Origin: a virus
Virus record (IMG/VR): IMGVR_UViG_3300005758_000578
Location: 48,049-112,048 of that record
Length of the DNA: 64,000 nt
Direction: 5' to 3' (one strand)
Both the position numbers and the translations under genes were made by a program. Under the pieces are notes generated by a model. That model ran no database searches, had not been told where the DNA came from, and worked only from the letters and a program-made list of their open reading frames with translations. How positions within the stretch are numbered: position 1 is the stretch's first letter; every line of letters starts with the position of its first letter. This document shows positions 6,001-29,408 of the stretch, one piece after another.

Positions 6001-8382
6001 ATCATATAACTCTTTTACTAATGGTACAACAGTAGGATCTACAATATCAGTTTGACCGGTGAAGAAAGCTTTTACAATACGCCATAATTTCTGGAAGATA
6101 CTTTCATTAGGCTTAACAAGAATTTTCTTACCATCAGATAATACATAACCTCTGAAGTCCTCAGCCAAGTATTCTTCTACTTGCTTATCAGTTGCATTAG
6201 CTAAATACTTAACCCCTTTTCTTACTGAATCATATAAACTTTGCTTTTGATCCTTTGTTAATAGTAACTGTGAGAATGCATGCCATGCTTCATGATATAA
6301 AGTAGTGTAATCTTTATTACCAGCTTTTGTAAATAATGTAATACCGCTAGAACTAAATAGTCCTAATGCATCTGAGTTAGTTAAAGCAATTGCTTCATTA
6401 ACCGGGATCATTGTAGAAAGCTTTACTTTCTCACCATCTACCATAACCTCTAAAGATCCATACCAGTCTTTAATCTTTTTAATCTCTTCAGGTGTAGTAT
6501 TTACAGGTTTAAATCCGGCTCTCTTCAAACTATTGTTAATCTCATTAACAAGGTCCATATCAAATGTACCTTTAAAACCAGAAGGTGTAGTATTTACATT
6601 CTGATTCTTAATAATAGTTTTAGGTTTGGCTTTTACTTTAGTTTTAGTTTTTTTACCCTCTTCTTCAACTGGTACCTCTTCTTCCTTTTTCTCAGTTGGA
6701 TACATTTCTTCTAATGCATCAATAGTAAATTCATACTGCAAACTGGGGTTAAAGGTTTTAATGGTACCATCATTACGCAACACGGTAAACACTACAGTAT
6801 TCTGTCTTACAAAATCATTATAATCAATCTTAGTCTTTGTAAATTTGCCTGACTTATAATTAGGTAAATCTATCTTACCATCAATATTATCTTTTGATAT
6901 ATTTATATAAGCGGTAGCTAACTGTTCTGCTATAAAATCTTCATCTGCTAAATCCGGATTTTCAGAATCATATATTACATCCTTATCTGAATAGATACTT
7001 AAAATTGGTTTCTTATTAGTGTCATCGTAACTAATATTAAAAGTACCGTCATTAACGTTATAGATATTCTCCAGTATACCAAATTTTACAGCATTTGATA
7101 CTTTAGGATCCGCAATAAGTTTTGCAAGATTCTTAGCTAATTCATTAGATGTCTTAGTAGGAAATACTTGTACAAGATCTCCAAACTTATCTAATTTTAA
7201 AAATGTTTTACCAGAGTTGTCAAACTCTATATTACTAATAGTATCTGAAGTAATGTTACTTACCTCAGTTAATTTAACCGGTGTATCAGATAATAAGTTA
7301 AAGCCAGATCTACCACCAACTATCTTTAATGGTAAAGCTAAACTCTTATTACCTATAAAGGTTTTAATAAATTTATCTACTAACTCTACTTCTTTAGCTC
7401 TTTGATCCTCTAATTGTTTTCTTAAAACTTCTACATCTGGAATTTCCACTCCGGCTCTAGCAGCTTTAGCAATAGTTCTTTCTACTAGTTCATCTATAGG
7501 TGCAAGACTAGTCTCACCATTCTCTACAAATATGAACTCTCTTTTACCCTTATTAGTATTAGGAGTGATGAAATCAGTTACGGGAATAATAGCACCTTCT
7601 GCTTCATCTTGACCTTCAATATTTGTAATATAACCTCTACTATTTACAAAGATTTTCTTGTATCCATCTTTAGTAAAAGTAGCAAAAGATAACTGCGTAA
7701 TTCTACTACCTCTAGATGTAATTGTATCAGTAGGAATCATATAGATACCTTTGATTTTAGTACCATTAGATGCAGTTATCTCTATTTGTTCAGCACTATC
7801 AAGATTTAGTTTACTTAGTCTATCTAGAATAGAGCGCATAAATGCATAGGTAGCAATCTTTTCAGGATCTGGATCTGCCTCACCTGTTAACTCACCTTCT
7901 TCATTTACCTCTTCTTCTTGACCAGTAGTAACTAAACCAGTAGTATGTTTTGCCTGGAATTCTATATCACTACTTAATTGTGTAGCTCTCTCTAATTGAG
8001 AACTAATAATCCCGGCTTTCTTTCTTACTTGCTCTAGTCTTTCTGGACTTAATTCTTTTACTGCAAGATATTTTTCTACAACTGTAATATCTTCAAAGCT
8101 ATCTCTAAGATCTAAAATATCATCAGTACTAATTTGATTATCTCTAAAATGCTTACGAATATTAGGATTCTTATTAACTATAGTGGCAATAATTCTTGGA
8201 ACCAATTGTATGTAAGTTAATCCTAAACTAGTATCATTACTAGCAGCAACTACTTGCTCATAAAATTGATTAATATAATCTTTTAAATTATAGGGTGTTT
8301 TGTTATCTGTAATAACAGATAAGTCTTTAAAAACTTTAGCGTAAAACTGCTGCTGTTGTAATGCGGATAGTGAACAATTCAT
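1..8382 (-). CDS. Giant virion-associated RNA polymerase (crAss-like, phi14:2 gp66-type) with N-terminal zincin domain; 3' end runs off the window (at least 2794 aa)
   Basis: Not in the ORF track (no stop inside the window). ATG at 8382 (MNCSLSALQQQQFY...). In the same frame: HEAWH at 6280-6294 followed by EEYLAEDF (zincin), and ELVAKSGGDFDIDKL (DFDIDK at 2059-2076), the crAss-type DxDxD catalytic motif, preceded by GVRIPVQGLNS. Confidence 0.92.
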   Translation of the reverse strand, partial: MNCSLSALQQQQFYAKVFKDLSVITDNKTPYNLKDYINQFYEQVVAASNDTSLGLTYIQLVPRIIATIVNKNPNIRKHFRDNQISTDDILDLRDSFEDITVVEKYLAVKELSPERLEQVRKKAGIISSQLERATQLSSDIEFQAKHTTGLVTTGQEEEVNEEGELTGEADPDPEKIATYAFMRSILDRLSKLNLDSAEQIEITASNGTKIKGIYMIPTDTITSRGSRITQLSFATFTKDGYKKIFVNSRGYITNIEGQDEAEGAIIPVTDFITPNTNKGKREFIFVENGETSLAPIDELVERTIAKAARAGVEIPDVEVLRKQLEDQRAKEVELVDKFIKTFIGNKSLALPLKIVGGRSGFNLLSDTPVKLTEVSNITSDTISNIEFDNSGKTFLKLDKFGDLVQVFPTKTSNELAKNLAKLIADPKVSNAVKFGILENIYNVNDGTFNISYDDTNKKPILSIYSDKDVIYDSENPDLADEDFIAEQLATAYINISKDNIDGKIDLPNYKSGKFTKTKIDYNDFVRQNTVVFTVLRNDGTIKTFNPSLQYEFTIDALEEMYPTEKKEEEVPVEEEGKKTKTKVKAKPKTIIKNQNVNTTPSGFKGTFDMDLVNEINNSLKRAGFKPVNTTPEEIKKIKDWYGSLEVMVDGEKVKLSTMIPVNEAIALTNSDALGLFSSSGITLFTKAGNKDYTTLYHEAWHAFSQLLLTKDQKQSLYDSVRKGVKYLANATDKQVEEYLAEDFRGYVLSDGKKILVKPNESIFQKLWRIVKAFFTGQTDIVDPTVVPLVKELYDNLRLGNLFEYAYSVENMQFGNLYRGIDPLNEEEPSISLSDSRLINESVDGAFSEIINATGLNISAIYSDKRALDFLYKNTKQYFQDVLNDTIARVENDPDGVNTIDRNNIRILEYAINNFGDLDNVISGKEKSGVIAYHRQKSKYLAFEAKVLEAEEDKSDPGVDSFDRSGNDKSLKELASKQALYMVKSLYQVKANGEPIKNRLGFNKLVEFGKAWSTISKTLINSNTFDEIYTKLVGLQESFPEAAQLIAKLGDPEQSQTNNANFKRWLGFAQTFNKTVTPIIEHRLSTSIEEEEDKSASTKVSTYIQRATSDTTKIVNSFNSKFLTNRSKYVIRKKGSTPILNIDKVFEDFSSINKLNVFDFLKAVGFYLDDNPTLREALENALLDRKSKETYIAFDYLIEALKKAKENKTIITNPIKFFRDPKQGNQSGYVNKILTLQAKYSSSDFSTGIMNPEGNMEYETSLRNSLSQIIDGLNKVTKLSDMLEDPQFNYLRAYHPDINPYSKHSYIMKSLFDSNGNRRKDVILSLENLSGVRRDFNGITVEGIKTNKLNKYDKFMFDVHAIILGKTPELPRHASKSSSYGVGMNKYYGEAGVDNLIVPIKDVARYGHDSAMPIILNYLSAELERIWYIKNIPSLQNVDSFKKNGTKIMAFDSVLSAATKAKLYELVDNAESIDDIVYSEELEKDIKKDSGKYFNNQIRTNYKIWTQISAVTGSVLLSPEIRTKIAEETRIGKGLDKTNKYANDPQAQLELINEVYTYNSWFNNFETQLFYGDASQFNHEKEEFPKRNASIASTGDFAILDNYTIDYLNNTSNNTYAEKEGLPKLRFDSAIKTTVLNDIEPESVYYSHYKQLLVSLGVSEERAEKILKPYKKITEGDGQGWITFDFYRNYLRSLNKWSDIQEDLYNDVINNPDSVDPKKVAEFFPVLKASYYGPLKTEKLNASGLHKFSLMPLIPTVIKGTNLEQFHKQLLEQGISYALFKSGSKISNITLEDGTIPNMYTDATKRTLYTGEYAINGINLNFFKNQLDIAPYFKGKVTLSSQLRTIIETNLYANGKPLKKEYKSIVERYEKAIDNYVKFYKQKLFKEVGLEFSADGKLIKGDPKDLIKAIQKELVRLEVPEHQMDILDVNEDGSLKYDFDSIINSNTIEKQLVSIIERKIVRPTVKGEQLVQVSSSGFENPKFTNPSKEDLLKYGTNGLAFYDVVNGKITPMQVKVALQGDFLKLLLTTHVDGKKVGTLERLNEMLKDKQWRDLNVETIRMVGVRIPVQGLNSIEYMEVGEFLPAEAGSIVIVPTELVAKSGGDFDIDKLSILMPNISISQTTDTIQESTYKQLLDEVFNKEASMTADDSTIRGIENEIIKSMIGIMEIKENFVQLITPNETDIVKPIADELAQFNRDYNPRAKAEFQDSAFTVSPTRMFETENNLYKHESNNIGKLTLGIGAVSNKYSVLLNRVGAYLDKTYNFLDNKGKQRTAKNRILFKHNKTEDGKISLSDLNSKDSAVYISDVISQLMNGWVDIEKDSWVFDMNAIYELIPTLLYMLQAGVDVKTAAYFLSQPLIKEYISTYRVLNGMYTKSLDTSGDSAKGPGFLKFKAKQYVIDKYGIFDEDDKRELKKRLKDPFLLKQLYNANTRKNPLGSKKSLTAAVDIMTKAYNVYAISDDNIKEIVQKQYKRSPLAKLAFIHFLEIEDQAQVMREISSSTNVDTKKSGNLYQAKSRLSKLEQLEEGSRLPNEITVKLENESSIAPFFIQDYILNVFKDYFPLRASNAINTYLTDIVNNNYNIIREEYGDVDSFVDLFRNDLLQFIIQNSIGSVDINTVKDYKGYAVSDTIDVEKVRGLKRSAVYYEGKIYLDRAKLREEYNNKTYSKAEYEETGLAKLPFDKRTDVIPLFSSEKQYTAFVLEREYLRATRDRGDFSEDIYEKGLVEDALHNVYNLKSMFFGPTSFPDKFEDIKNFIENRDYSLFDYLVYDSQQIKTGTKNATIKNLRLTGDTK

Positions 8383-15429: not shown

Positions 15430-18400
15430 TTAAGCAGTCTTATTCCTTCTTTTAGACATACCAGCTTGAGCAGCTGCAATATTACCACGCTCATCTACAT
15501 TTACATCACCCATAATACCTTTAAGCAAAGCAGCTTGTACTGAAGGATCTGTAAAATCAAATGGTATACCAGTTGATTCTAAATAAGCCATCATATCATT
15601 ACCTCTTTGTGCTGGGGTAATCTGTCTACCAGGTGTATAATAAGTTTTAAGATAAGCAGGATCAACAAAGAAATTAGGATATAGACTATTCATTTGATCA
15701 GTCATAAATCTATTATCTAATGCAGCATTTGCATAATCTACAACTTGTCTTCTACCAGCTCTTCTAGCATTATCATATTGCTGATTAGTAGTAACTGTCT
15801 TATCATAGAAGTCATTAGCGGCTAATTGATTTCTAAAGTTAGCTTCATTAATCAATTGCTTATTGGCTTGTTCAAACTGATTAGCTACACCAACGTTTAA
15901 GTTATTATATCTACCCAAGATATTAGCTGCATTAGCTAAACCTTTACCTTGTACATCAGAGAATCTAGCATTAAATGATTGCGGTCCGGTAAACTGTGCT
16001 AAATTACTAGCAGCAATATTAGCCATCTCAGCATTAGCGGCCAACTCTCTATTAGGATCATAGAATGTAGGCTTCATAGGCTCTGCGGTAAACTGTGCCA
16101 TTCTAGGAAAGTATCTATTAATACTAGCTAAGTCACCAACAGCAGCTGCAGTATTTAATACATCTTGAGGATAGAAACCAATTGGTCTTCTTTTAGCTGG
16201 TGGTGGAGGAATTAATTCTCCTGGAGGAATCTCTTCTCTTGGAGTTTCTGGTGGTGGTGGAATTTTATCAATAGTAATAGTTGGACGAGACCATGTATAA
16301 TGACCAAACATTTTATCTAATCTATTGGGATCTTTTGAATTAGGATCAAAACCAAATTCTAATACATTCTTCTTAGCTTCTTCTTCACTTAAACCAGCTT
16401 TAATAGATTGATCATAAATATCATTGTTATACCAGTTTTGGAAAATTTCATTGTCAGCTTGATTTTTAGGATTAAAATTAGGATAGAATTTTAAAAATCT
16501 TGCTTGTCTTCTAGTAAAGTCATCTTTGTTTTCACCAGCATACCAGTCTTCAGTACCAAATGTTCCACTACCTTCTCTTCCACCTTGACGACCTGGAGTC
16601 ATACTCCATTCTTTACCTTCATATCTTTTAGGTACAGTAAGTTTAATACCAGCTTTTTCTAACTCAGAAAGTCTAGCAGGATTAATAGTTCTATAGTTAG
16701 GTTCAATAGTTTTAGAACCTAATTCTTTACCTGATGCATCTACAATACTTACAGTATTACCTTTAGTAATTCTTTTACCTTTACTACCATCTGGTAATGT
16801 AACTACTTCTACATATTCTTTCTCTCCAGTTACTTGACCTGCTGTTTGGTATTGTTCTAATTCTCCACCATATTCTTTTTGATCAAGCATGCTATTAATT
16901 TTTTCATTAAGCAAATCATCAATTGTTAATGGTGTAGTTTGTGTTTGTGGTTTAGCTACATTAACAGGTTTTGGAGTTTGAGTAATAGGTTTAGCTTTTT
17001 GTGTTACTGGAGCAGCTTGTTTAACTGGTGCTGCAGGAACTGTATCCACTTGTTGTTTAGCAAATGGTTGATTAATAGAATTTAAAAATTCTTGTCTTCC
17101 TTTATCTACTCTTTGAATATAAGAAGGAATACCACTAGATTTAATAACTAAATCAATTGCAGCTTCTGGATTATTAAATGTATAATCCTGAAATCTTTGA
17201 GGAGACATGTTAACCGCAGATACACTATATGGTGCAGCTTGCATATTGGCTGTAGGTTTAACTTGCCATCTACCATCTTTAAATTCAATATCTTCTGCTG
17301 TATATGGTTTTGTTCTATTAACACGAACATTAGCACCAGTTTGAGCTTTAGGAATACCACCATATCTAGCCATCATCATACCTTCTTCAGGAGATGGTGG
17401 TAAGAACTGTGCAGGATCTAATCCTACTTTATCCATATAAGGAACAGCAATCTGTGGAATACCTTGTGGGAATCCTTTTTGAGATTCTTGTACAAGAGCT
17501 AACTTACCTAAGTTAGAGATATAGTTATCAGCCATCATAACAGATGTAGCTTTACGTAAAAGATCATTTTCAGAATATAAACCCTCACGTAATTCTTTAT
17601 TGTTAAGATCAAACTTCTTAGAAATTTGAGCAGGAGTGTAGCCACCTTTCTTAGCAGCAAAGCCAAAAGATTCTAAGATAGCCGGATCTTTAATCTTCAT
17701 AGCTTTTGTATCTGAGTAAATAAAACTATCTGGTGTAGCTTTTTCTCCAGATAATGGAGTACCACCTTGAGAGTGACGTTTACCACCAATAGTAAAGAAC
17801 TCAGGAATTGTACTATCAGTACCCTTACGTACTAAAGTTTCTCCCTTCTCTGCTTCCAATACAGAAATAGATCTAGGATCCGGTCCTAATGTCTGACCAT
17901 ATTGTTCTTGTGGTTCACCTTTAGTTGCACCATTAAACATGTTCATCATATAAGCCGAGTTACCATATAACTGATTAACAGCTTTAGCATCTTGAGTACC
18001 ACCATATCCAGCTTGTGGTAAACTTGTAATTTTTACTTTTCTTTTCATTTCTCCACCCATCTGGGCAATTTTATTGTAACCTTCAATTATAGCTTCATCA
18101 GGTCTAAAGTCTAAACCAAAACCAGGAGTATTTACTAAATAGTCTCCTCTATTACCAGAATAATCTTCAGGTCTTACATTATATAAGTTATCAGATAAAA
18201 GCTGATTTCTGAAATCTTGTTTAACATTTCTATCTTGAAGTTTTCTAGAAACAGATTTAAATATATCTGTACCGGCTAATAACATTGGTCCTATATAAGG
18301 ATTAGCATTATTAGAATTATTAGTGTTAGTAGCCTTTAATGATTTACCTGGTATTTGATAATCCCAAGATTGATAAGCTGTTGGTTTCCAATCACTTGGC

Positions 18401-18768
18401 ATTTCTAATGGTACACCTGTTGATAATGCTGGAGTTAAATTATTTTGTCCTTGATAAACATCAGCTGGCAAAAAATTAGCAAATGATGTACCTCTTATAT
18501 TAGAGGTGTTTTCATTTATTTTATTTCCTACATTAAAAGATCCTGTAGTATTAGGATCTCCTTGATATACATCTGCATAAAATGAAGGACTAGTATTTAA
18601 ATTAAATGTAGGCATTCCCACATTAAAATTACCAGTAAACTGTGGTACATTACCATAAGGATTTTGCTGACCATAGTACTTAAGTCTTTGATCTGGTGTT
18701 AAAACCATAGATGCTTCTGTACCAACTTGAGCTTTTGGTAAGCTCTTAATTTTTACTTTCTTCTTCAT
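15430..18768 (-). CDS. Virion cargo protein (1112 aa) with x-x-x-G-G motifs
   Basis: Contains an EAEKGE...GGKRHSQGG...FIYSD segment and an Asn/Gln/Ala-rich C-terminus; duplicated K(K/R)KVKI.SLP.A..G motif. Confidence 0.6.
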   Translation of the reverse strand: MKKKVKIKSLPKAQVGTEASMVLTPDQRLKYYGQQNPYGNVPQFTGNFNVGMPTFNLNTSPSFYADVYQGDPNTTGSFNVGNKINENTSNIRGTSFANFLPADVYQGQNNLTPALSTGVPLEMPSDWKPTAYQSWDYQIPGKSLKATNTNNSNNANPYIGPMLLAGTDIFKSVSRKLQDRNVKQDFRNQLLSDNLYNVRPEDYSGNRGDYLVNTPGFGLDFRPDEAIIEGYNKIAQMGGEMKRKVKITSLPQAGYGGTQDAKAVNQLYGNSAYMMNMFNGATKGEPQEQYGQTLGPDPRSISVLEAEKGETLVRKGTDSTIPEFFTIGGKRHSQGGTPLSGEKATPDSFIYSDTKAMKIKDPAILESFGFAAKKGGYTPAQISKKFDLNNKELREGLYSENDLLRKATSVMMADNYISNLGKLALVQESQKGFPQGIPQIAVPYMDKVGLDPAQFLPPSPEEGMMMARYGGIPKAQTGANVRVNRTKPYTAEDIEFKDGRWQVKPTANMQAAPYSVSAVNMSPQRFQDYTFNNPEAAIDLVIKSSGIPSYIQRVDKGRQEFLNSINQPFAKQQVDTVPAAPVKQAAPVTQKAKPITQTPKPVNVAKPQTQTTPLTIDDLLNEKINSMLDQKEYGGELEQYQTAGQVTGEKEYVEVVTLPDGSKGKRITKGNTVSIVDASGKELGSKTIEPNYRTINPARLSELEKAGIKLTVPKRYEGKEWSMTPGRQGGREGSGTFGTEDWYAGENKDDFTRRQARFLKFYPNFNPKNQADNEIFQNWYNNDIYDQSIKAGLSEEEAKKNVLEFGFDPNSKDPNRLDKMFGHYTWSRPTITIDKIPPPPETPREEIPPGELIPPPPAKRRPIGFYPQDVLNTAAAVGDLASINRYFPRMAQFTAEPMKPTFYDPNRELAANAEMANIAASNLAQFTGPQSFNARFSDVQGKGLANAANILGRYNNLNVGVANQFEQANKQLINEANFRNQLAANDFYDKTVTTNQQYDNARRAGRRQVVDYANAALDNRFMTDQMNSLYPNFFVDPAYLKTYYTPGRQITPAQRGNDMMAYLESTGIPFDFTDPSVQAALLKGIMGDVNVDERGNIAAAQAGMSKRRNKTA

Positions 18769-18772
18769 TGCA

Positions 18773-21031
18773 TTAATCTAAATACTCAATACCATACCCC
18801 TGATCAATTAATGCTTGAATTTCATCGGGATGTAATTCTAATTCAGCACCTTCAGTCATACCACCAAATTGTTTTTTCCATTTAGCAGCGTTTCTAGCAA
18901 AGTTAGCTCTTTTTACTTGTGTTGCACTATAGTCCTCTTTATTTGCAAGTACGTGTCTAGCAAACTCTTGCACACCCATGCCGGCTCTATTAGCTGACTC
19001 TGTAAACTTACCTTTATTAGCAGGATTGATATGAATACCACCATTCTTCATTTGATCAGTTTGTGCTTCTTGAATAGCCTGCATAATCTTTTGAATAGCT
19101 TCTTGCTGTTGTATAGGAGGTAAAGATTGTAATTGTGCCATAAGTTGTTGAGGATCAGTTTGAGTCATTTGTGCATACATTTGAATAGCTTGCATAATTT
19201 CATCCTGTTGACCACCTTGTTGATACGTATTACCACCTTTCATCATCTGGTACATGGCATCCATATCCATTTCACCACCATACATATCAGTGTCACCACC
19301 ATACATCTTTCTACTATTTCTATAAATCTGACGTAATTCTTTAGCATCAGGATCATTACCAGTACCAAGTCTAGGATCATTAGAGTTTCTATAAATATCT
19401 AATCCCTCTCTTTCTTGTTTGTTTCTGATTTCATTACCAATCATAAATCCTACAGTGCCTAATCCAGCAACTGCAGTAGCTATTGCATCATTACGCTTCT
19501 TTTTCTTAGCGGCTTTAGCGGCAGCTTCTGCAGCGGCTTTTTGTTCTTCAGTTAATGGAGCTCCACCATCCTGGAATGATTTCTTATATGGTTCTTTAAA
19601 TACAGGATTACCCAAAGGTTTACCAGTTCTTGGATCTACACTTTCTGTAAAAGTCTTCCCAGTTGGCATTTTTGGATTAGCTGTATTAAATATCATACGC
19701 CCGGTTTGATCTGTATAAGTAGGAGGATTAGTATTTATAAAGTATTCATATAACTGATCACGTGATGGCATATCACGTTTCTGTACTCCAGCTTGGTTTA
19801 ACTGCTGCACTTGTTGATTATAATACTGTTCAAATCTAGGATCTTCTACTGGCTGACCACCATCTTGCATAAAAGGATAAGTCATACCACCGTATGCCAT
19901 ATTAGATAAGATCTTAGCTTGTACATAATCTGGCAATGCTTGGAATCCAGCATTAGTTGGTTCACCACCATTAGCCCAAGTACCAAAACGCTTGTGCCAG
20001 TATAAAGGAGAGAATGGATCTTTAGCTTTAGCTGAATTCTTACCACCCATTCTATTCCAGAAATTATCCTTACGCTTCTCAGAATGATGTTGGCTAAAAT
20101 CTTTCATACCGGTATAGCCACCATGTACAATTTTATACTTATCACCTTTCTTAGCTAGTACCATCCACTTCTTACCAGCTCTATCAGATTTTCTCTTAAC
20201 TCCTACTTTAGTAAAACCTCTACTCTTATAACGCTGAGGAATACCACCCATCTTCATCTCTTCCATTTCACCCATGCTCATATCAATATCTTCCTCTTCT
20301 TCCTCTTCCTCACCTTCATTATATTGCATATAATCAGCAACAGTATTTAAATAATCATCTGCTAATGTAATCTTACTAGCTACCCAGGGATCAATCTCTG
20401 TATTACCGTTGATGAAGTTTTGTAATCTAGATAGTTTATCATGCATTGCCATAATCTGACCAGCTGCCATTTCACCACCTTCATCATACTGAGTATCACG
20501 CATCATAATACCGGCACCACCCATTTGCATAGCTGGCATACCCATAACATTCATAGCTAATTTTGCCATCTGCATTTTATCTCCGCTATCTCCCTCAGCA
20601 TTATTCATAGCAGTACTAGCAGCCATTGCACCATTAAGTACAAAATCACCAATAGCATTCATAGGATTATTAGCTCTATCCTCATTCATCTTTTGATAAT
20701 AAGAAACCATATTACCATTATAGTTAGGATATTGGAAAATCTCTTGGTCTTGTAATCCACCACCAGTTTGAGCTTTTCTATATCCACCACCACGACTCTT
20801 ATAAGTTTTAACTAACCAGGCAGAACCATATGCACTAGGCCATCTATCAAATTTAGATTTAGCTTCAGCTTTAACACGAGAATATAATTCAGGATTAGTG
20901 GGTACATTACCACCTTTCTTCATCTGTCTAGCTTCAGGATAGGCTTGAAAGAATGCTTCTTCTGTAGGAAACATAGAATAGAATTCCTTCTCAGATTTAA
21001 CACCAGCTATCTTTAAAAATTTATCTTTCAT
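18773..21031 (-). CDS. Modular GG-punctuated protein (752 aa), putative polyprotein
   Basis: 15 x-x-x-G-G motifs separate short, compositionally distinct modules. Confidence 0.6.
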   Translation of the reverse strand: MKDKFLKIAGVKSEKEFYSMFPTEEAFFQAYPEARQMKKGGNVPTNPELYSRVKAEAKSKFDRWPSAYGSAWLVKTYKSRGGGYRKAQTGGGLQDQEIFQYPNYNGNMVSYYQKMNEDRANNPMNAIGDFVLNGAMAASTAMNNAEGDSGDKMQMAKLAMNVMGMPAMQMGGAGIMMRDTQYDEGGEMAAGQIMAMHDKLSRLQNFINGNTEIDPWVASKITLADDYLNTVADYMQYNEGEEEEEEEDIDMSMGEMEEMKMGGIPQRYKSRGFTKVGVKRKSDRAGKKWMVLAKKGDKYKIVHGGYTGMKDFSQHHSEKRKDNFWNRMGGKNSAKAKDPFSPLYWHKRFGTWANGGEPTNAGFQALPDYVQAKILSNMAYGGMTYPFMQDGGQPVEDPRFEQYYNQQVQQLNQAGVQKRDMPSRDQLYEYFINTNPPTYTDQTGRMIFNTANPKMPTGKTFTESVDPRTGKPLGNPVFKEPYKKSFQDGGAPLTEEQKAAAEAAAKAAKKKKRNDAIATAVAGLGTVGFMIGNEIRNKQEREGLDIYRNSNDPRLGTGNDPDAKELRQIYRNSRKMYGGDTDMYGGEMDMDAMYQMMKGGNTYQQGGQQDEIMQAIQMYAQMTQTDPQQLMAQLQSLPPIQQQEAIQKIMQAIQEAQTDQMKNGGIHINPANKGKFTESANRAGMGVQEFARHVLANKEDYSATQVKRANFARNAAKWKKQFGGMTEGAELELHPDEIQALIDQGYGIEYLD

Positions 21032-21035
21032 TTTG

Positions 21036-23183
21036 TTATTTGTATTTTTTTAACCAGTCTATTTGACCACCTTGTTTCTTTTGTTTAACATATATTGGTT
21101 TACCTGTTGCATCTTTTTTATAATAGAATCTATCATAAAACTCATATGGTTTTCTATTACTACCATATACAACTGCATCCATATATGGTAAGTTAAAATC
21201 ATACTTATCATAAATAGATACATATCTTCCTCTTTCATCCTCACCTTGTGATAATATAAATTTCTGTAAAGGATCTGTCTGAGTAAATGGTATTTCATTA
21301 TCAGTAGTCATCATATCTTGATTAATGATATATGGACTTAATGCATCCATTTGAATAGTTTGTCCAGGTTTACCTTGAGATTTTTGTATATATGCATCAA
21401 TAAGTTTTTGAGGATCATATACATTATTTAAAGCATAGTACTGGGCATTAGGATCATTAGCTTTACTTGGTTTATATTTAGATGGACTAATATATTTTGG
21501 TTTAGTTGGTAATCCTAAAGCTAATCTCCAAGCTTCTTCACTAACATGATAATCTCCTTGCCAATCTCTTAATGGTACATCTTTACCACTATTAACTACA
21601 GCACCAATAACATCAGGATAATCAATAGGACGATATCTATCAAATATTTGTTGTTTAGAAACATCACCAACTTTTTCTGCAACTTTAGTTGTGCCCTTAT
21701 CAACTAATGCTTTTGCAACATGACCTCTTACTTCAGGAGTTAATGCCAACTTTAATAGATTAGTAAAAGATCCACCACTTTGATATTGTTCTAACCACCC
21801 TCCATACTTTGCAACATTAAGTTTAGGTTGTTCTATTTTAGAAACATTATTTAATAACCATAGAAGATCATCCTCATTATAAAGAGATTTTAAATCTTCA
21901 TAATCTTGATGTATAATTGCATTATCATTATTAAAAATTTCAAACTTATTTAGATCTTTATATTTAATTTTATCATTAAATACATCAACTCCAAAATTTT
22001 GATTTAAAAGTTTTCTAGTTGAATTTAGTCTAGCTCTAACTTCAGTAGGATCAGAATAGTAATTAATAGCTCCTTCTTCAGGAGTATTACCATGATCTTG
22101 CCAAAAACCAATGCTCTCTACATTTGGATTTTTTCTTATTCTCTTACTGATCTCAGCTGTATCTTGTTCTGGAATAAGTCTATCCCAAGAAACATTAAGT
22201 ATTGGTCTATCAACTGAATGAGATATTTCATGAGGAAAAACCTCGTTTTTAAAAAAATTTGGAGACGATGATGGATTAACTGTTATACTACCAGTTATAT
22301 TTGAAGAATATCCTCCAATTCCTCTATTTATTTCCCCATTTGTTAATCTATTTAACTCAGTAGGAATAGTTAATAAATTATATGCTCTACCAACTTCAAT
22401 TTGAGAATCTTCATCTTTACCTTGAAGCATATCTCTATATCTAGGAGATGACATATATTTTTTAGTCCAGTTATAAGCAGCTTCAAAATCGGAATTAGAA
22501 AAATTTCTATCTGCGGGTACTTCACTAAAATCTATCTTTTTACTAAATTCATGGTCTCGTAAAGCATCTTCCATAGTATAATTACGTTCTCTCGTATTAG
22601 GTATAACAAAAGAATTAAAAAATCTATTTAAAGCACTTTTAGGTTTAATATGAACTTCAGATATTTTATCAGGATTTAAGAAAGTAGTTGTCTCAATCCC
22701 ACCGTCTTGATACTGATCTAACCAAGTCTCACCACCATCTTCTCTACGCTTATGATTATAGTCTATACGCTTACCAGATGTTTTCTCTCTTTTAAATTTA
22801 GCTTTCTCTGCAGATGACATCTCTGATGTAGTTTTAGGAGTTGTTTCATTTACCCGCTTCTTAGGTCTGCATGCAGGATAAGGTCTAGAACCTTTTTCAT
22901 CACCTGATCTACCACATGGTTTACCGGTCTTAACATCAGTCCACTCTTCAGCAAACCATTGTCTTAAACCACCTTTACCCATCTGTGGAATTTCAGTTAC
23001 ATAATTACCAGGAAAATTGTAATCCTTACCAGGCATCATCATTTGACTGTTACCTAAATCATCTACACCTAATACTGGGTAATTTACCCCCTTCATTGTT
23101 ATGTTAGAAGAGGGTATGATTGTAACTTCACCGGGATATGCCCACTGACCTAAAGGAGATACTATAGGTTTTTTCTTAGCCAT
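21036..23183 (-). CDS. Modular GG-punctuated protein (715 aa) with zincin-like metallopeptidase module
   Basis: HEISH at 22218-22232 plus downstream PTEVRARL; six GG motifs with WL(D/E/K)xY spacers. Confidence 0.65.
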   Translation of the reverse strand: MAKKKPIVSPLGQWAYPGEVTIIPSSNITMKGVNYPVLGVDDLGNSQMMMPGKDYNFPGNYVTEIPQMGKGGLRQWFAEEWTDVKTGKPCGRSGDEKGSRPYPACRPKKRVNETTPKTTSEMSSAEKAKFKREKTSGKRIDYNHKRREDGGETWLDQYQDGGIETTTFLNPDKISEVHIKPKSALNRFFNSFVIPNTRERNYTMEDALRDHEFSKKIDFSEVPADRNFSNSDFEAAYNWTKKYMSSPRYRDMLQGKDEDSQIEVGRAYNLLTIPTELNRLTNGEINRGIGGYSSNITGSITVNPSSSPNFFKNEVFPHEISHSVDRPILNVSWDRLIPEQDTAEISKRIRKNPNVESIGFWQDHGNTPEEGAINYYSDPTEVRARLNSTRKLLNQNFGVDVFNDKIKYKDLNKFEIFNNDNAIIHQDYEDLKSLYNEDDLLWLLNNVSKIEQPKLNVAKYGGWLEQYQSGGSFTNLLKLALTPEVRGHVAKALVDKGTTKVAEKVGDVSKQQIFDRYRPIDYPDVIGAVVNSGKDVPLRDWQGDYHVSEEAWRLALGLPTKPKYISPSKYKPSKANDPNAQYYALNNVYDPQKLIDAYIQKSQGKPGQTIQMDALSPYIINQDMMTTDNEIPFTQTDPLQKFILSQGEDERGRYVSIYDKYDFNLPYMDAVVYGSNRKPYEFYDRFYYKKDATGKPIYVKQKKQGGQIDWLKKYK

Positions 23184-26100
23184 TACCTAAATGATGCAAG
23201 TAGTTTATTATTAGAGAGCTTCAATAAGAACTTAGATGATCCAGAAACAATTTTCTTTAACAGAACCTTATTAATGTAATGTCTAAATTTCTTTCTTTGT
23301 GTAGCTCCCTTATTATAATTTACATAAGTTGGATTAATATTCCTAATGTAACCGTTGGATTCAGTGGCCCACATAGGTGTAAATGTACCAGTAAATTCAC
23401 CACGGTCATTAGTAATATCCCAGAATTGATTGAATCTATATTTCTGTTCTTCTTTAGAGAATAAGATATCAATGTTATTAGCATTTACTAATGGATAACT
23501 ATTAATCAAATATGGATCATTCTTAGGAGATAGATTTAATCTTAGATCACCAGAAATTTGTTCTGTGTTATAGATGATAGCCCGGTCAAAGTTCTCATCT
23601 AATAAATGATGATAGTCTAAACAGTTGGGAGAATATCTATAGCACTCTAAGATATATTCTACTGATCTAGTTGTTGTAACAGTTTGACCTTGGTTCTGTA
23701 CATACTCTACCTCAAATGGATAGTTAACACCATAATAGTTACAGAAAGAATCACATACTAAGTTATGTTTCCAGATACCATTATCCTTTACAGTCATGTA
23801 GTAAGTCTTACTAGACATTACTAAGTTAGGATGCCAGTCATGGAATGAAATAAATGCTCTAGCTTTAGGGTCATAACTTACTGTCCAGGAAGCATTTTCA
23901 AAATATGTAGGATCTCCTAAATCAAATTGATATCCGGGGAAATCTACATGACCAAACTTATTACTGTACAGATAAGTTACTTTACCCTTATACTGTGGCT
24001 TAAGTTGGAAGTCACGCTTACAGAAGAATACAATCTCATTGATGTTGTCATATGTTGTTTGACAACCTATACCAATAATTGTATTGTCTATAATATTAGG
24101 ATCCAAATTAGGGAAGTCTACTAATAAAGCATATGGACTATACTGTGAGAACCACCACTTCATACCAGACTTAGATATATCTTGTAAGCCTTGACCATAG
24201 GAGAATACTTTACCCTGGTTTTGACTCATGTAAAATAATCCGGCTGGTGTATTAATTACAGACAATCTATTCTGGCAGCTCCCATATTCAAACTCAGGAT
24301 CTGAGTTTACTAAATTCTGTAATGGTTGTGCATTAAATAACTGACCATCACCAATAGATAATTTAGTACCACCGTTAAGATCTAATGTTTCTACACCCTG
24401 GAATAAGATAGGAGAGTTATTATTTAACATAATAATTGCTCCGGTCTTACCTACAGAACGCATGCTAACTACTTGAGAATCAAAGTCTTTATAGTTATTA
24501 GCTAAGAACTGTCTCCAGTTATCTTTACTTAATTCAAACTGTTGTTGCAATGAATAGATAACCCGTTTATCATATGTTGTATAACATGATACATTAGCCG
24601 GATCATAAATTCTAGATTGCATATTACCCCATGATGCAAAGTTTGAGAAGTGCTTACTAATACTTAAAGCATAGTCATACTTCTGATAGTTTGTATCTTT
24701 AATATATGGAGTACGGAACATCTCCTCATAATCAGTGTAAGTAGTAAAGTCATAATGTCTCTTACCTGGATCATCTCCGTAATCTCTATATGCTAAGTTA
24801 ATCTCTGATTCTACATAAAAGTCCCGGATACCAGAGTTAAACAAATACATATATGCATATCTAACCATGAATGCTCCAGATATAGTCCTTCTATCTAAAT
24901 GGTGAAAATCATTAGGTAATGCTTGATCACCACCAAATATACCACCTAATAAATCAGCAGCATTATATTTAGTAGTATCCATCCAATATCTTGGATAAGG
25001 AAGCATGTTATATAATCTATAATCCCACTCAGTATTATCTGGCATATCCTGCATCCACTGAGAGAAATAGAAGAATGTAGATTTCTCAGTGTAGCGGTTA
25101 ACATACATGTCACCACCAAAGATTACAGCTGATGTAGACTTAGAAGATATTACAGGAAATAAATTAATGCAACCAATAGGCACTTGTCTAATATTATCCA
25201 ATTGACCATATTGATTATCATTCTTAATCTTTAATGCAGCATAGTGAGCAGATGTAGTTGATGACTGAACAAAGTCTTCTGGTTTCTTCCAGATATCTTT
25301 TGCTTTAATTGGTTTATTATCATTGTCTACACCATATGAACTAGGTAAAGGTCTTCCATTCTCTCCTCTAGCAATTTGACCAATTGTAAATAAAGTATTA
25401 TCTACAACTGTAGGATCTGCAATAGGAGAATTTAAAGATACAGTTACAGTGCTAGCACGGAACAAATTATTAATCCGGTAAGTAGTATCATAATCCTGAA
25501 TAACTGGATCAATGTAAAGAGACTTAATAATCTCTCTTCTTCTGTTACCTACAGGTGATGCAGCAAAGTTTTTATAGAAACCATGTGATACATATTGATA
25601 AGCAAACTGTCTTTTACCACCAGCTGCTTCAATACCCTCAATTAAATTTTGAGTAGATGCTAACCAGTAATAAGAGAATAAGATTGCATACTGAGCCATT
25701 GCACCTATTAATCCGGCAATTGCACCCGTAAATGGTTGAGCTGTTGTAGCAGTTCCAGCAATAGCAGGAATAGCCGCAGTAATACCAGCAGCAATAAGAA
25801 AATCTGTAATGGGAACAGCAGCTCTTGCGGCAGCAACACCTAAAGCAACACCCGCAAGATTAGCAATGATTGCAGAAGTATCTGTAATAAACTTATCTTT
25901 AGGATGATTATCTACTGGTCTAAATCTACCTTCTACATCACCCCATACTTGACCATATACTTTTAATTCTGTAGCTGATAGAAAAGGATTCCGGAATGTA
26001 GTTTCAGGTGAGTGAAAAGAGAAGATATCTCTTTTAACTCCATCAAACAATTGTACATCAACAGCACCAGAATTTCCAGTGTGATACTTATCATCATCCA

Positions 26101-27883
26101 TAGTACCACCACGAGTCTGTCTTATTTTAGGTAATTTCTTCTTATCTCTACCTAAGAAAGAATCATGATCTAAGAAATTGTACGGATAGTTTACGTACAA
26201 TCCGGTAATATTGCTATCTACAATATCATAAGATCTCATGTTGTTAATAAGACCCTTTGCAATAATAGATCTATTAGCTTCTCTTGATCCTCTTAAGATC
26301 TCATAACCAATAATACTTCTGATAGGATTACCTGTTGAATCTTTAGGAAACTCAATATTAGAGAACTCTACACCTAAAGAAATAATGTTATTATTAACCG
26401 GATTATAGTTAGGCATAATAATATCATCAGGAAACTTATGGTGTCTAATTTCTTGGCCACATAAGGTATCCCATACATCTGGTTTATTATCTGGATATTT
26501 TTCAGTAGACTGCCAATAAGCCATCTCACCTTTAAATACAATTGTACCACCATCATCAGTGGTTCCAGTTGCAGGTACTTTGGTAGCAGTATTGTTTACT
26601 TGCCAGTTTTGTTCTGGACCAAAGTTTACAATATGATCAGGGCCAGAGTTATTACTAAGTTCTCCGGGTTTTGATATACGTCCTGGAATATGATAGCTTG
26701 CAGATTTTGCACCTGTGTCATAAATCCAGCGTATAAAGAAACTATATACTTCATCTCTTAAAAATGTTGGTTTGTTTCCGCCTTTATAATAATAGTCAGC
26801 GGGATATTCTACACCTACCCAATTAGTGCTAATCTTATTAGCTAAGGGTTGGTAATTAAAATCTTCATAAGTGGTAGGAGCAATACGGATAAGGTATTCA
26901 TTTACATTATACATACCCTGTGATTTCTCATAAGCCGGGGTACGTAAAGGTATTTGCTCCAAAGGAACTGTAGGTAATGTAGGATCTACAGCATCTAATG
27001 ATATAGTACTAGTCTGAGTAGAATAGTAACCAATTCTTCTAGCTACAGCTTGTTGATTAACAAAACCAATAACTACTAACTCAAACTCATCATACTCTGT
27101 ATCTAAACCATTAATAAAAATATCTAATGACCCGTTTACATTATCATGTGTCCATAAAGCCTGTACGTTAGAAATAGCTAAGTAGTCAGATACTTTAACA
27201 CCATTAACTGAGTAAGCAATTGTAGCTTGGTATGATCCATTAAGTAAGGTACCTAAACCATTACCTTTCTTTACCTGAATACAAGGAGTCTTAGCATATG
27301 CTGCTAATCTTAATTTATCACAATCAATTACTCCAGTTGATACTTCATCTTTACAAGGTCCTGGAAGAACATCTGTTGTAAGATAAGGAACACCATCCCA
27401 ATTACCTACAGGATAAGGCCATGATTCTTCCTTACCAATATTCATAGTCCGGGATACATTGTATCCATGATCCCAGTATAAAGACCAAGTACAATCAGAG
27501 TTATACTTAGATACACCAATTACTGGATATTCTTTAAAGAACTTAAAGCATTGGTTTAAAGGATCATTGTGAATAGTATTATATGCACATGTTTCTTCAT
27601 GAAATAATCCTACTTCAGAAGCAAAATTATTAGAGGAATAAACAGCCCAATAACCGTTATTAATATATACAGTACCAATGATTGTATAAGGAGCTCTTGC
27701 ACAAAGTACATTACTAGGCTCATTACCTAATACACCAACATCTCCAGAAGGAGAGTTGTTTACTGCATTTCTAGCATGTGTCCAATAACCTTCACCTATA
27801 TAAGTATCACTTACGTCTTTAAGTAAGCCTTTGTTATATAGCTCGGTGTGTATTAAACTGGTTTTACCGTCCATTATCTCCAA
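23183..27883 (-). CDS. Tail stabilization/muzzle protein (1566 aa)
   Basis: N-terminal GLLKD...YWTHARN...LGNEPSN, FLRDEVYSFFI, IRHHKFPD and SFHDWHP segments typical of the crAss-like muzzle; position between ring and cargo genes. Confidence 0.75.
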   Translation of the reverse strand: MEIMDGKTSLIHTELYNKGLLKDVSDTYIGEGYWTHARNAVNNSPSGDVGVLGNEPSNVLCARAPYTIIGTVYINNGYWAVYSSNNFASEVGLFHEETCAYNTIHNDPLNQCFKFFKEYPVIGVSKYNSDCTWSLYWDHGYNVSRTMNIGKEESWPYPVGNWDGVPYLTTDVLPGPCKDEVSTGVIDCDKLRLAAYAKTPCIQVKKGNGLGTLLNGSYQATIAYSVNGVKVSDYLAISNVQALWTHDNVNGSLDIFINGLDTEYDEFELVVIGFVNQQAVARRIGYYSTQTSTISLDAVDPTLPTVPLEQIPLRTPAYEKSQGMYNVNEYLIRIAPTTYEDFNYQPLANKISTNWVGVEYPADYYYKGGNKPTFLRDEVYSFFIRWIYDTGAKSASYHIPGRISKPGELSNNSGPDHIVNFGPEQNWQVNNTATKVPATGTTDDGGTIVFKGEMAYWQSTEKYPDNKPDVWDTLCGQEIRHHKFPDDIIMPNYNPVNNNIISLGVEFSNIEFPKDSTGNPIRSIIGYEILRGSREANRSIIAKGLINNMRSYDIVDSNITGLYVNYPYNFLDHDSFLGRDKKKLPKIRQTRGGTMDDDKYHTGNSGAVDVQLFDGVKRDIFSFHSPETTFRNPFLSATELKVYGQVWGDVEGRFRPVDNHPKDKFITDTSAIIANLAGVALGVAAARAAVPITDFLIAAGITAAIPAIAGTATTAQPFTGAIAGLIGAMAQYAILFSYYWLASTQNLIEGIEAAGGKRQFAYQYVSHGFYKNFAASPVGNRRREIIKSLYIDPVIQDYDTTYRINNLFRASTVTVSLNSPIADPTVVDNTLFTIGQIARGENGRPLPSSYGVDNDNKPIKAKDIWKKPEDFVQSSTTSAHYAALKIKNDNQYGQLDNIRQVPIGCINLFPVISSKSTSAVIFGGDMYVNRYTEKSTFFYFSQWMQDMPDNTEWDYRLYNMLPYPRYWMDTTKYNAADLLGGIFGGDQALPNDFHHLDRRTISGAFMVRYAYMYLFNSGIRDFYVESEINLAYRDYGDDPGKRHYDFTTYTDYEEMFRTPYIKDTNYQKYDYALSISKHFSNFASWGNMQSRIYDPANVSCYTTYDKRVIYSLQQQFELSKDNWRQFLANNYKDFDSQVVSMRSVGKTGAIIMLNNNSPILFQGVETLDLNGGTKLSIGDGQLFNAQPLQNLVNSDPEFEYGSCQNRLSVINTPAGLFYMSQNQGKVFSYGQGLQDISKSGMKWWFSQYSPYALLVDFPNLDPNIIDNTIIGIGCQTTYDNINEIVFFCKRDFQLKPQYKGKVTYLYSNKFGHVDFPGYQFDLGDPTYFENASWTVSYDPKARAFISFHDWHPNLVMSSKTYYMTVKDNGIWKHNLVCDSFCNYYGVNYPFEVEYVQNQGQTVTTTRSVEYILECYRYSPNCLDYHHLLDENFDRAIIYNTEQISGDLRLNLSPKNDPYLINSYPLVNANNIDILFSKEEQKYRFNQFWDITNDRGEFTGTFTPMWATESNGYIRNINPTYVNYNKGATQRKKFRHYINKVLLKKIVSGSSKFLLKLSNNKLLASFR

Positions 27884-28740
27884 CTATTAAAATTATAACT
27901 TTTAAATTGATCGTAATATTTGCCATATTGAGCCTTACGGTTCATCTGCCACATCTTATACATCTCAGCAAAGTCTGGAGTATTTACTAATGACAAGGCA
28001 TTATTACGGGCTGCTCTTAATCTCTGTTCAATTAAATTAAGTTTCTGTACTACATCTTCCCCATTCATATACAAGTTCTCAAGCAATCTCTGTTTAAGAG
28101 CATATTCATAATACTCATTTACATATGGGTTATCTAATACCATCAAGTTACCCTCTTCATCTTCCATAGTACCTTCATAGTTGATGTATACTTTACCGTG
28201 GTCTAGATTTAGATAAATGTAACCATTCTTAAGTTGTCCTTTATACGGTGACTTCCAGGTAAGATTAGGACAGTCACAAGAAATAGTTTTAGAGTTATTA
28301 TCTAAAGAGATAACTGTACTAATCTCATATGTCCGGGTCTCATACTGTGTAGTCTGAATTACTTGTAATAAATCACCACACTGAGTCAAACAAGTATTAG
28401 GTTGACAAGTACAGGGATCATCACAATTTGGATTAAAGGGTACAATAGTATCCTCTCTATGCGTACCAGAAATAGCGGGCTGTGTAATGCTATATTCACC
28501 ACACAACATTGCATAGTTTAATACATAGAAATCATCAGGTAGTCTTACTTTACTATTGACAATATCAAGTACTGCTTCCTTAGTTTTATTAATCCTAAGA
28601 CCTAAATCATAATTAACTCTCTGAACAACTTTAATAAGTTGCTGAGGCTCTATCATATTCTCTAAAGCATACATAGAGAAATCAACACTTACATCTTCAA
28701 GTAATTGATTAAATGTACGATATTTTAATTCTGTAAGCAT
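27874..28740 (-). CDS. Tail tubular/ring protein
   Basis: 288 aa, VRLPDDF and G.VYINY.G...DEEG segments; immediately upstream of the muzzle gene. Confidence 0.65.
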   Translation of the reverse strand: MLTELKYRTFNQLLEDVSVDFSMYALENMIEPQQLIKVVQRVNYDLGLRINKTKEAVLDIVNSKVRLPDDFYVLNYAMLCGEYSITQPAISGTHREDTIVPFNPNCDDPCTCQPNTCLTQCGDLLQVIQTTQYETRTYEISTVISLDNNSKTISCDCPNLTWKSPYKGQLKNGYIYLNLDHGKVYINYEGTMEDEEGNLMVLDNPYVNEYYEYALKQRLLENLYMNGEDVVQKLNLIEQRLRAARNNALSLVNTPDFAEMYKMWQMNRKAQYGKYYDQFKSYNFNSWR

Positions 28741-29408
28741 TATCTATTTGGATTAATATTGTCATCACTAAGATCTGTAGGAATAGATAATCTAGATCCT
28801 AAATCTTTAATTGCCATTGCTTCAATTTCAGCTAATAAGAATTCAGGTACATTAATACCCAAATCCTGTTTCTTAGTACATGCATTAGCATCATTAGTTG
28901 CATCTTCTGTAAAAATTGCCTCTACCTTAATAGCATCCCAATCAAGATTAGGCATGTATAAATATCCATTCAAGTACCAAAAGTATTTAAACTTGTTATA
29001 CTTAAAGCCGGTTGTTTTAGTCATAGAGGTATATTGACCAGGTGTGGTTGCATATAACTCTTCAGATGCATCAATAGAGCTCACTGTGCGAATCAAAGGA
29101 CCCCAGTAACCCTCTAACATAGTAGGAAGTTTTTCTTTTGTTCTACGGATAGTGCAGCCGGATTTAATACCAGCACAACATGCCTCAATTTTATCTACTT
29201 CAATTAACTCTAAACAGTCTAGAGTTCTCCAGATAGAATTAAATTTCATTAGCTTATTCTGAGAATCTTGTCTTCTCATTAAAAGCTGTGAGTATTTTAC
29301 TACTACACTATAAACATATCTATCTGTCAGAAAAGCATCTTGCCTTACTGCTTTTACTTGATTCTTTACCCGTGATATTACGGTGCCAATAGTTATCATT
29401 TTTATCAA
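28740..29408 (-). CDS. Tail ring protein
   Basis: CLELIEVD...C...RTKEKLP...YLNGYLY pattern; synteny. Confidence 0.6.
   Translation of the reverse strand: MIKMITIGTVISRVKNQVKAVRQDAFLTDRYVYSVVVKYSQLLMRRQDSQNKLMKFNSIWRTLDCLELIEVDKIEACCAGIKSGCTIRRTKEKLPTMLEGYWGPLIRTVSSIDASEELYATTPGQYTSMTKTTGFKYNKFKYFWYLNGYLYMPNLDWDAIKVEAIFTEDATNDANACTKKQDLGINVPEFLLAEIEAMAIKDLGSRLSIPTDLSDDNINPNR

Follow-up and report, generated by a model that had tools for sequence, protein, structure and literature searches.

Gly-Gly seam peptides separate exchangeable modules in cargo-type proteins of an uncultured crAss-like phage

Why are three adjacent phage proteins divided, again and again, by the same short peptide ending in two glycines, and is the chain cut there? 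We addressed this question for a 64,000-nucleotide stretch of DNA, here called the window, which comprises bases 48049-112048 of the 112,048-bp IMG/VR virus record IMGVR_UViG_3300005758_000578, estimated to be 94% complete. Its source is an uncultured crAss-like phage (crassvirus), and the window represents the structural half of the genome. The genes in question lie on the minus strand and encode, in order of transcription, proteins of 715 (21036-23183), 752 (18773-21031) and 1112 (15430-18768) amino acids (aa). A previous sequence-only reading had proposed that they are virion polyproteins processed at x-x-x-Gly-Gly motifs. The three open reading frames (ORFs) and every Gly-Gly (GG) motif listed there were recovered in our analysis, together with further GG runs at residues 81, 304 and 329 of the 752-aa protein, at residue 290 of the 715-aa protein and at four places in the 1112-aa protein; several of these additional runs fall inside conserved domains, not at joints. 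Below, we describe the motif, termed seam, which is confined to these proteins and at which modules are exchanged among relatives, and weigh what it might do.

Enrichment was tested against 2000 composition-preserving shuffles. GG pairs were 2.6-fold overrepresented in the 752-aa protein (20 observed, 7.6 expected) and 2.1-fold in the 715-aa protein (7 observed, 3.3 expected), while the 1112-aa protein showed no enrichment (8 versus 6.9). The extended motif [MYFAW]xxGG exceeded the shuffles in each protein, with 12 versus 1.9 occurrences in the 752-aa, 4 versus 0.6 in the 715-aa and 5 versus 1.4 in the 1112-aa protein, and the pooled count (21 versus 3.7) was reached in 0/2000 shuffles. Most of the motif signal comes from the 752-aa protein. 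With 8.1 occurrences per 1000 aa, [MYFAW]xxGG was 7.5 times as dense as in the remainder of the proteome (33,279 aa; 1.08 per 1000 aa). A stricter pattern, derived post hoc from these same three proteins, occurred 18 times in them and nine times in the remaining proteome.

The form of the seam emerged from 475 GG contexts that were retained, after removal of related ones, from about 430 relatives. Y, M or F occupied position -3 in 37% of contexts (13% background), Q was 3.3-fold enriched at -2, Y and E were favored at -1 and E was 2.3-fold enriched at +1, with no information beyond -4 and +2. On this sequence evidence, the seam is compact and reads [M/Y/F]-[Q/K/A]-x-G-G. In the 715-aa protein, a passenger module is bracketed by an extended, compound version, GG-x(0-3)-W-L-x-x-Y-Q-x-GG.

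To follow the seams through evolution, 120 homologues of each protein were cut at GG and the pieces were clustered, with most of the piece length required to match; these homologue sets are phylogenetically related and the counts below are not independent events. In the 752-aa family, constant ends enclose a middle block in which whole pieces are permuted, duplicated or lost, and homology breakpoints fell exactly at GG in 25% of cases versus 3% for random positions. The 715-aa family possesses a core consisting of an N-terminal anchor, the C-terminal half of a DUF5872 domain and a C-terminal domain, between or after which diverse passengers are inserted. Its smallest members comprise the core alone (407 aa), whereas Pfam assigned LysM, lytic transglycosylase and YkuD domains to passengers in some relatives. 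Breakpoints in this family lay ≤5 aa from GG in 32-37% of cases (10% random). The architecture of the 1112-aa family is much more fixed. An expandable cassette with modules gained or lost at GG, as envisaged from the sequence alone, is, thus, what the homologues display: passengers are swapped and inserted at GG, other modules are permuted, duplicated or lost there, and free-standing homologues begin after it.

Such free-standing forms were found for two modules. An 86-aa homologue of the DUF5872 half is encoded as a separate protein by the podovirus Prochlorococcus phage P-SCSP2, where residue 3 is the aligned counterpart of the residue that immediately follows GG. For a Tlr6f/DUF5754-like core contained in the 752-aa protein, 78 related ORFs from 80 related viral loci placed the core anywhere between positions 3 and 1738 of ORFs measuring 91-2181 aa. 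Where embedded, the core nearly always has [M/Y/F/L]-x-x-GG(G) immediately in front of it, regardless of the many unrelated sequences farther upstream; where free-standing, the gene encodes 91-108 aa that start with Met-Ala or Met-Pro and continue with the core. Because these free-standing copies carry no seam at their start, the seam belongs to no single module. In two phages, a free-standing Tlr6f/DUF5754 gene directly follows a large muzzle-like gene, that is, it occupies the cargo position discussed below. A distant phage contig (L084:9660-10300, plus strand) carries a DUF5872-like 112-aa gene beside a free-standing 96-aa Tlr6f/DUF5754 gene, in the same order as the corresponding fused modules of the 752-aa protein. 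Conversely, several relatives unite modules of the 715- and 752-aa proteins in one ORF, which shows that a seam and the gene boundary at 21031/21036 can stand in for each other.

The genomic setting points to a cargo role. Pfam identified a Crassvirales virion module in the window, with matches to Crass_capsid (3.8e-31), CrAss_Ring_1 (6.9e-12), CrAss_Ring_2 (1.3e-18) and crAss_MUZ (E=1.3e-34), all encoded on the minus strand. The order of transcription is ring 2 (28740-29408), ring 1 (27874-28740), the 1566-aa muzzle protein (23183..27883) directly upstream of the three genes, the 715-, 752- and 1112-aa proteins and then proteins of 855, 1470 and 3148 aa. The muzzle protein is closest to those of Cellulophaga phages phi4:1 and phi17:2, an epsilon crAss-like phage and Flavobacterium phages. 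The 3148-aa product (1..8382, minus strand, extending beyond the window edge) is a giant virion RNA-polymerase protein. It carries DFDxD, a motif of the crAss virion RNA polymerases, at 2062-2076 and, separately, an HExxH site at 6280-6294 (residue 697) that makes it a candidate trans-acting zincin. In PhiCrAss001, the muzzle gene is followed by those for cargo proteins C1 (gp45) and C2 (gp46) and then for RNA-polymerase proteins, all of which were detected in virions (PMC10172136). As our three genes take the same place after the muzzle gene, they occupy the cargo position, ahead of the giant RNA-polymerase gene, which matches their initial placement between the muzzle and ejection-protein genes. 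By this position and by analogy with the PhiCrAss001 mass spectrometry data, their products are probably packed in the virion and injected. A nucleotide search of the region against a phage collection gave no match.

The 752-aa protein, a cargo-type polyvalent protein with 18 GG runs, illustrates the modular layout (all features on the minus strand). Near its start lies the N-terminal half of DUF5872 (residues 42-83, 20783..20908; Pfam PF19197, E=7e-9, profile positions 1-43), while the C-terminal half resides in the neighboring 715-aa gene as the basic module B (residues 73-151, 22731..22967; net charge +9; PF19197, E=1e-11). The two matches, each to one half of the profile, scored 36.7 and 45.9 bits against a cut-off of 27.5. 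Acidic, Met-rich modules follow (residues 93-263, 20243..20755; net charges -4, -2 and -16), which are probably disordered, as the pLDDT (predicted local distance difference test) of an AlphaFold2 (AF2) model is about 25-30 there. Met contents in these modules and in the tandem seams described below amount to 12-36%, with M-x-M and M-x-x-M spacing, which might serve to bind metal or to provide flexible hydrophobic surfaces. Next comes the basic Tlr6f/DUF5754-like core (residues 264-356, 19964..20242; Pfam PF19058, E=5e-6; PHROG 220), whose score of 26.9 bits is marginally below the curated cut-off of 27.4 but is backed by the 78 related ORFs at 66-95% identity. Across the GG between these regions, the net charge leaps from -16 (residues 187-263) to +12 (residues 264-305), as expected from the earlier statement that the motifs part compositionally unrelated segments. 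The adjoining block, variable among relatives (residues 357-579, 19295..19963), contains a hydrophobic stretch that, judging from the translation, is probably membrane-spanning. It leads into four tandem seams within 33 residues (19211..19309), which are separated by spacers of 7-14 aa without a module in between. A basic module termed K (residues 666-724, 18860..19036) is flanked by GG here and likewise in the cargo-position proteins of the gut crassviruses cr108_1 and PhiCrAss001 (gp45); it weakly matched a NikA-like ribbon-helix-helix (E=0.008). In the AF2 model (mean pLDDT 48.5, with 446 of the 752 residues below 50), confident small helical modules alternate with pLDDT dips at GG, and a helix or strand stops 0-3 residues ahead of GG in ten of the 18 runs.

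The 715-aa protein, also of the cargo-type polyvalent kind, shows the core architecture together with one passenger. Its N-terminal anchor, module A (residues 1-72, 22968..23183, minus strand as for all features of this protein), is β-rich, ends in a seam and is present in nearly all 120 homologues. Module B is followed by compound seam 1 (22698..22736), GG-x2-W-L-x-x-Y-Q-x-GG, then by a zincin-like passenger (residues 163-462, 21798..22697) and by compound seam 2 (21771..21812), which aligns with residues 426-439 of PhiCrAss001 gp45. The family core resumes with the conserved C-terminal domain D (residues 472-706, 21066..21770), and the protein terminates in half a compound seam, GG-x3-W-L-x-K-Y-K-stop (21039..21080). 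Similar endings are widespread: 70 of the 120 family members stop 4-12 residues past their last GG, the commonest tails being GG-x(0-3)-W-L-x-K-Y before the stop codon. Use of half a compound seam as a C-terminal tail suggests that the W-L peptide has a role of its own, most simply binding. The AF2 model of this protein, built on a reduced alignment, reached a mean pLDDT of only 45.5, with values of 76-90 over about residues 540-700 in domain D, and a fold search with it yielded a best Z of 4.8 and no assignment. The zincin region folded poorly because there was almost no alignment depth. Pfam searches with single modules returned weak matches only. As a lead only, domain D bears a faint likeness to gp45 residues 450-490 (D-P-x-Q and Y-D-x-Y-x-F), with an hhalign probability of 0.3% against gp45 residues 415-600.

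The zincin-like passenger deserves separate mention. Its putative active site, H-E-x-S-H-S-x-D-R-P, is located at 22203-22232, and the Asp three residues past HExxH agrees with the phage-type zincins described previously (PMC5512222). Of 110 homologous stretches, 109 retain HExxH, and its place varies within proteins of 143-2433 aa. Judged by this conservation, the module is a genuine, widespread domain with putative catalytic activity. It had no Pfam match, while the ESM Atlas pointed weakly (score 0.88) to LPD23, a domain associated with polyvalent proteins. As a passenger it is rare, occurring in three of the 120 members of the 715-aa family and in five of the 80 related loci, whereas the seams are kept in all of them.

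The 1112-aa protein contains four seam-type sites plus variants. It starts with a basic leader (18721-18768, minus strand; K-V-K-I-x-S-L-P-x-A-x-x-G) and includes an internal repeat of this leader (17998-18066) just past its first seam. Unrelated proteins with zincin-like modules have similar L-P-K-A-Q peptides behind the GG that ends these modules. No match to the 1112-aa protein was found in Pfam, PHROG or the phage collection, and its BLASTP comparison to gp45 was not significant, with no full-length homology detectable.

How do these proteins relate to known systems? Polyvalent proteins of phages and conjugative elements are large virion-delivered strings of two to fifteen unrelated small domains, for which processing by embedded zincins has been predicted (Iyer et al. 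2017, PMC5512222). The proteins described here resemble them in combining many unrelated small domains in variable, extensively shuffled architectures and in a late-gene, virion-related context. In contrast, that study defines no junction motif and mentions neither glycine nor linkers nor boundaries, and the embedded zincin in our system is an optional passenger without which the seam persists. The second relative is PhiCrAss001 gp45/gp46 (Bayfield et al. 2023, PMC10172136; PDB 7QOG and related entries), which shares the position directly after the muzzle gene and, in gp45, the GG-flanked basic K module, a compound GG-W-L seam and a hydrophobic membrane segment. Unlike PhiCrAss001, the phage studied here devotes three genes with far more seams to this position and includes DUF5872, DUF5754 and zincin-like modules that are absent from gp45. 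A portal-binding domain was not identified, as Pfam crAss_CARG1 (PF25725) gave no match at E≤1 in six frames of the whole genome. Tlr6f/DUF5754 and DUF5872 normally occur as free-standing small proteins, known from phages as well as from giant and polinton-like viruses (PMC12220804, PMC12085832); here they are embedded between seams, with DUF5872 split over two genes. In the literature searched, we found no description of Gly-Gly processing or of a junction motif in crassvirus or phage ejection proteins. Polyvalent cargo proteins are already known, and the defined, conserved seam peptide would be a new feature of them.

Which function would explain such a peptide? The reading we favor, at a probability of about 0.5, is that the seam stays uncut and serves as helix cap and hinge and, in its W-L form, also as a docking handle, all three roles being inferred. 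The three genes would encode ejected virion cargo of the polyvalent type, built from small modules that each fold on their own. These comprise the two halves of DUF5872, the Tlr6f/DUF5754 basic core, a basic module of ribbon-helix-helix type, a hydrophobic membrane segment, spacers that are acidic and Met-rich, and a zincin-like enzyme. A junction-specific short linear motif, either compact or in the W-L form, marks every joint. The seam would close off the final helix of a module, and its two glycines would form a hinge that insulates adjacent folding units. The chain could then be packed densely for storage, pass unfolded through portal and tail and refold one module at a time. In the AF2 model of the 752-aa protein, the helix and strand ends before GG and the pLDDT dips suggest this sequence of cap and hinge. 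The longer W-L form would probably also dock on the inner side of the virion. If seams insulate modules in this way, recombinants joined at them would be viable, which would explain gain, loss, permutation, fusion and fission of modules. Besides these model features, the W-L peptides at C-terminal tails and the ordered seam of gp45 on the portal led us to prefer an uncut, insulating and docking joint. The cargo position, the motif statistics, module exchange at seams, the junction-specific nature of the seam and the lack of a C5, C48 or C39 match in the genome likewise count in its favor. Compound seam 2 and its gp45 counterpart share 56% identity over 16 aligned columns (BLASTP, E=0.007 for the pair), and gp45 residues 425-552, published as one continuous portal-bound segment in the cryo-electron microscopy density (PMC10172136), contain three GG pairs, including this homologue of seam 2.

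Several points weigh against this interpretation. A hinge alone would not require M, Y or F at -3 and Q at -2, and the AF2 models, to which cap and hinge appeal, are poor overall. The continuity of gp45 is an incomplete argument, because none of its three GG sites has M, Y or F at -3. In addition, the information in the seam is compact and one-sided (-3 to -1 plus GG), like that of a protease site, and Q-x-G-G resembles the tail cut by SUMO-type proteases. The N-termini of free-standing homologues coincide with the post-GG residue as processing predicts, and insulation would not call for four tandem seams with spacers of 7-14 aa and no module in between.

These last points connect to the strongest competing explanation, which we consider distinctly less likely: the proteins might be true polyproteins, with [M/Y/F]-[Q/K/A]-x-G-G as the recognition site of a protease that, inside the head or once the proteins are injected, cleaves behind GG or between its glycines and thereby frees many small effectors. 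Cleavage would also suit the interchangeability of gene boundaries with seams and the presence in one chain of modules with opposite charge and unrelated function. Cysteine proteases that cut GG|X are familiar from adenovirus (adenain, C5), African swine fever virus (ASFV; pS273R), Ulp/SENP enzymes acting on SUMO tails and C39 peptidases acting on double-glycine leaders. Our seams resemble their substrates in carrying a specificity residue ahead of GG and, with Q two residues ahead, the Q-x-G-G of SUMO tails. Compared to the adenain and C39 consensus, however, the hydrophobic residue lies one position farther from GG. The search for a matching enzyme across the full genome, as the sequence-only reading had advised, provided no support: profiles for C5, C48 and C39 proteases (PF00770, PF02902 and PF03412) found nothing at E≤1 in the genome, which is 94% complete, although a divergent enzyme could escape such a search. 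Among Pfam families, no peptidase was detected in the structural half, and the early region offered only a DUF2201-type putative metallopeptidase domain, accompanied by a DUF2201 VWA-like domain and AAA-family matches. The initial view that a cysteine protease is not recognizable, thus, remains valid, but it had overlooked three HExxH sites, of which two lie in the window (in the 715-aa and RNA-polymerase proteins) and one at residue 199 of an 1855-aa protein outside it (genome 39678-45245).

These sites supply candidate enzymes, as cutting could be due to the zincin of the RNA-polymerase or 1855-aa protein, to the optional passenger or to a host Ulp/C48-like peptidase; PF02902 matched Bacteroides thetaiotaomicron in our control panel. 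There are precedents in the literature: embedded zincins were predicted to process polyvalent proteins and P1 DdrB is processed (PMC5512222), and a zincin-like domain beside the crAss virion RNA polymerase was proposed to cleave fused polyproteins (bioRxiv 10.1101/2020.03.07.982082). The embedded zincin as a general processing enzyme was rejected, since this optional passenger is absent from most seam-bearing members and loci. Short conserved peptides at module ends also occur in the internal head proteins of T4 and phiKZ-like phages, which are likewise packaged and injected. Their capsid-targeting sequences are removed by a dedicated prohead protease that cuts after Glu. In contrast, neither the Pfam scan of the structural half nor the literature searched revealed a head-maturation protease for our system.

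Traces of cleavage were sought in proteins and sequences. N-degron residues were not avoided after GG (24% at +1 versus 28% background), which argues against release of new N-termini. Among co-packaged proteins, depletion of GG was seen in the RNA-polymerase protein only (2 observed, 8.6 expected, P about 0.008) and was not general, contrary to what a GG-directed protease in the same particle would suggest. We also scored published matrix-assisted laser desorption/ionization (MALDI) peak lists of PhiCrAss001 gel bands 3-9 (PMC6235969 supplement) by peptide-mass fingerprinting. As a control, the RNA-polymerase proteins were correctly identified; band 3 was assigned to gp47 and gp50, and band 4 to gp49 and gp44. 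gp45 remained at background level in all seven scored bands. The resulting lack of full-length gp45 at ~58-100 kDa would agree with cleavage but constitutes weak negative evidence only. The gp45 peptides quoted in the structure paper (PMC10172136) are ordinary tryptic peptides and silent on cleavage, and neither processing nor a protease is mentioned in that paper. The lack of a recognizable protease, the optional nature of the zincin passenger and the continuous gp45 segment, which speaks against cutting across its three GG pairs, leave the proteolytic processing originally proposed unsupported so far. A packaging tag, the alternative already raised alongside it, fits the protease, passenger and gp45 evidence at least as well as cleavage does. 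The more specific scenario of an as yet unrecognised processing system of crassviruses and related phages, in which a zincin packaged alongside the cargo or a Ulp-like protease hijacked from the host cuts after Q/K-x-G-G and frees at least a dozen small effectors into the host at the start of infection, appears slightly more doubtful than cleavage in general.

Two further explanations dispense with both cutting and hinging. Seams could be multivalent stickers, with an aromatic residue or Met beside Gly as in FG- or YG-type low-complexity regions, that coincide with module boundaries only because stickers must sit in disordered linkers. Tandem seams, the largely disordered prediction for the 752-aa protein, its Met-rich acidic modules and the roughly 5.5 MDa of PhiCrAss001 cargo without ordered density (PMC10172136) would all be compatible with this idea. 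We nevertheless regard it as quite improbable, since 18 sites in 752 aa fall far below typical sticker-rich domains and every site precisely abuts a folded module. Slightly less probable still is a functionless motif, either a recombination scar (for example, by microhomology at GGTGGT, which encodes nearly all GG pairs, with fusions and fissions at seams) or a C-terminal relic of once-separate small proteins, because GGT is simply the preferred Gly codon (157/213), no DNA identity longer than GGTGGT surrounds the seams, the preferences at -3 and -2 hold up behind upstream modules that are unrelated to one another and in relatives that are distant, and free-standing copies mostly stop short of GG.

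Other features of the genome were noted in passing. Several homing-endonuclease-type domains (GIY-YIG, NUMOD1/3, LAGLIDADG and HNH) are scattered over genome positions 1-31600, outside the window, and over 30-64 kb of the window. Two adjacent large proteins (window 44993-47203 and 47223-49892, minus strand) consist of many DUF285 repeats (Pfam E=8e-172 and 9e-131) that follow an N-terminus with weak resemblance to PKD, and probably serve as tail fibres or in receptor binding. A 468-aa protein (window 32331-33737, minus strand) consists of 18% glycine with 33 GG pairs and weakly matches a grass antifreeze β-roll (E=8e-5). This Gly-rich repeat protein is of a different kind and has no relation to the seams.

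No phages are more abundant in the human gut than crassviruses, which are also common in the sea, and the issue raised by the seam is how their megadalton cargo is loaded and delivered. Should seams be cut, they would define a new phage polyprotein system in which cargo could evolve as a plug-in cassette, comparable to the maturation of core proteins in adenovirus or ASFV, and the released effectors would include Tlr6f and DUF5872 proteins. Irrespective of cutting, the seam supplies a rule for parsing otherwise unannotatable cargo proteins into functional units, and seam mutants and seam peptides provide an experimental handle on cargo loading, ejection and processing. Through the seam, Tlr6f/DUF5754 and DUF5872, two orphan families that are widespread among viruses, become connected with cargo delivered by virions, and the seam offers an explanation for how cargo repertoires evolve by cassette exchange.

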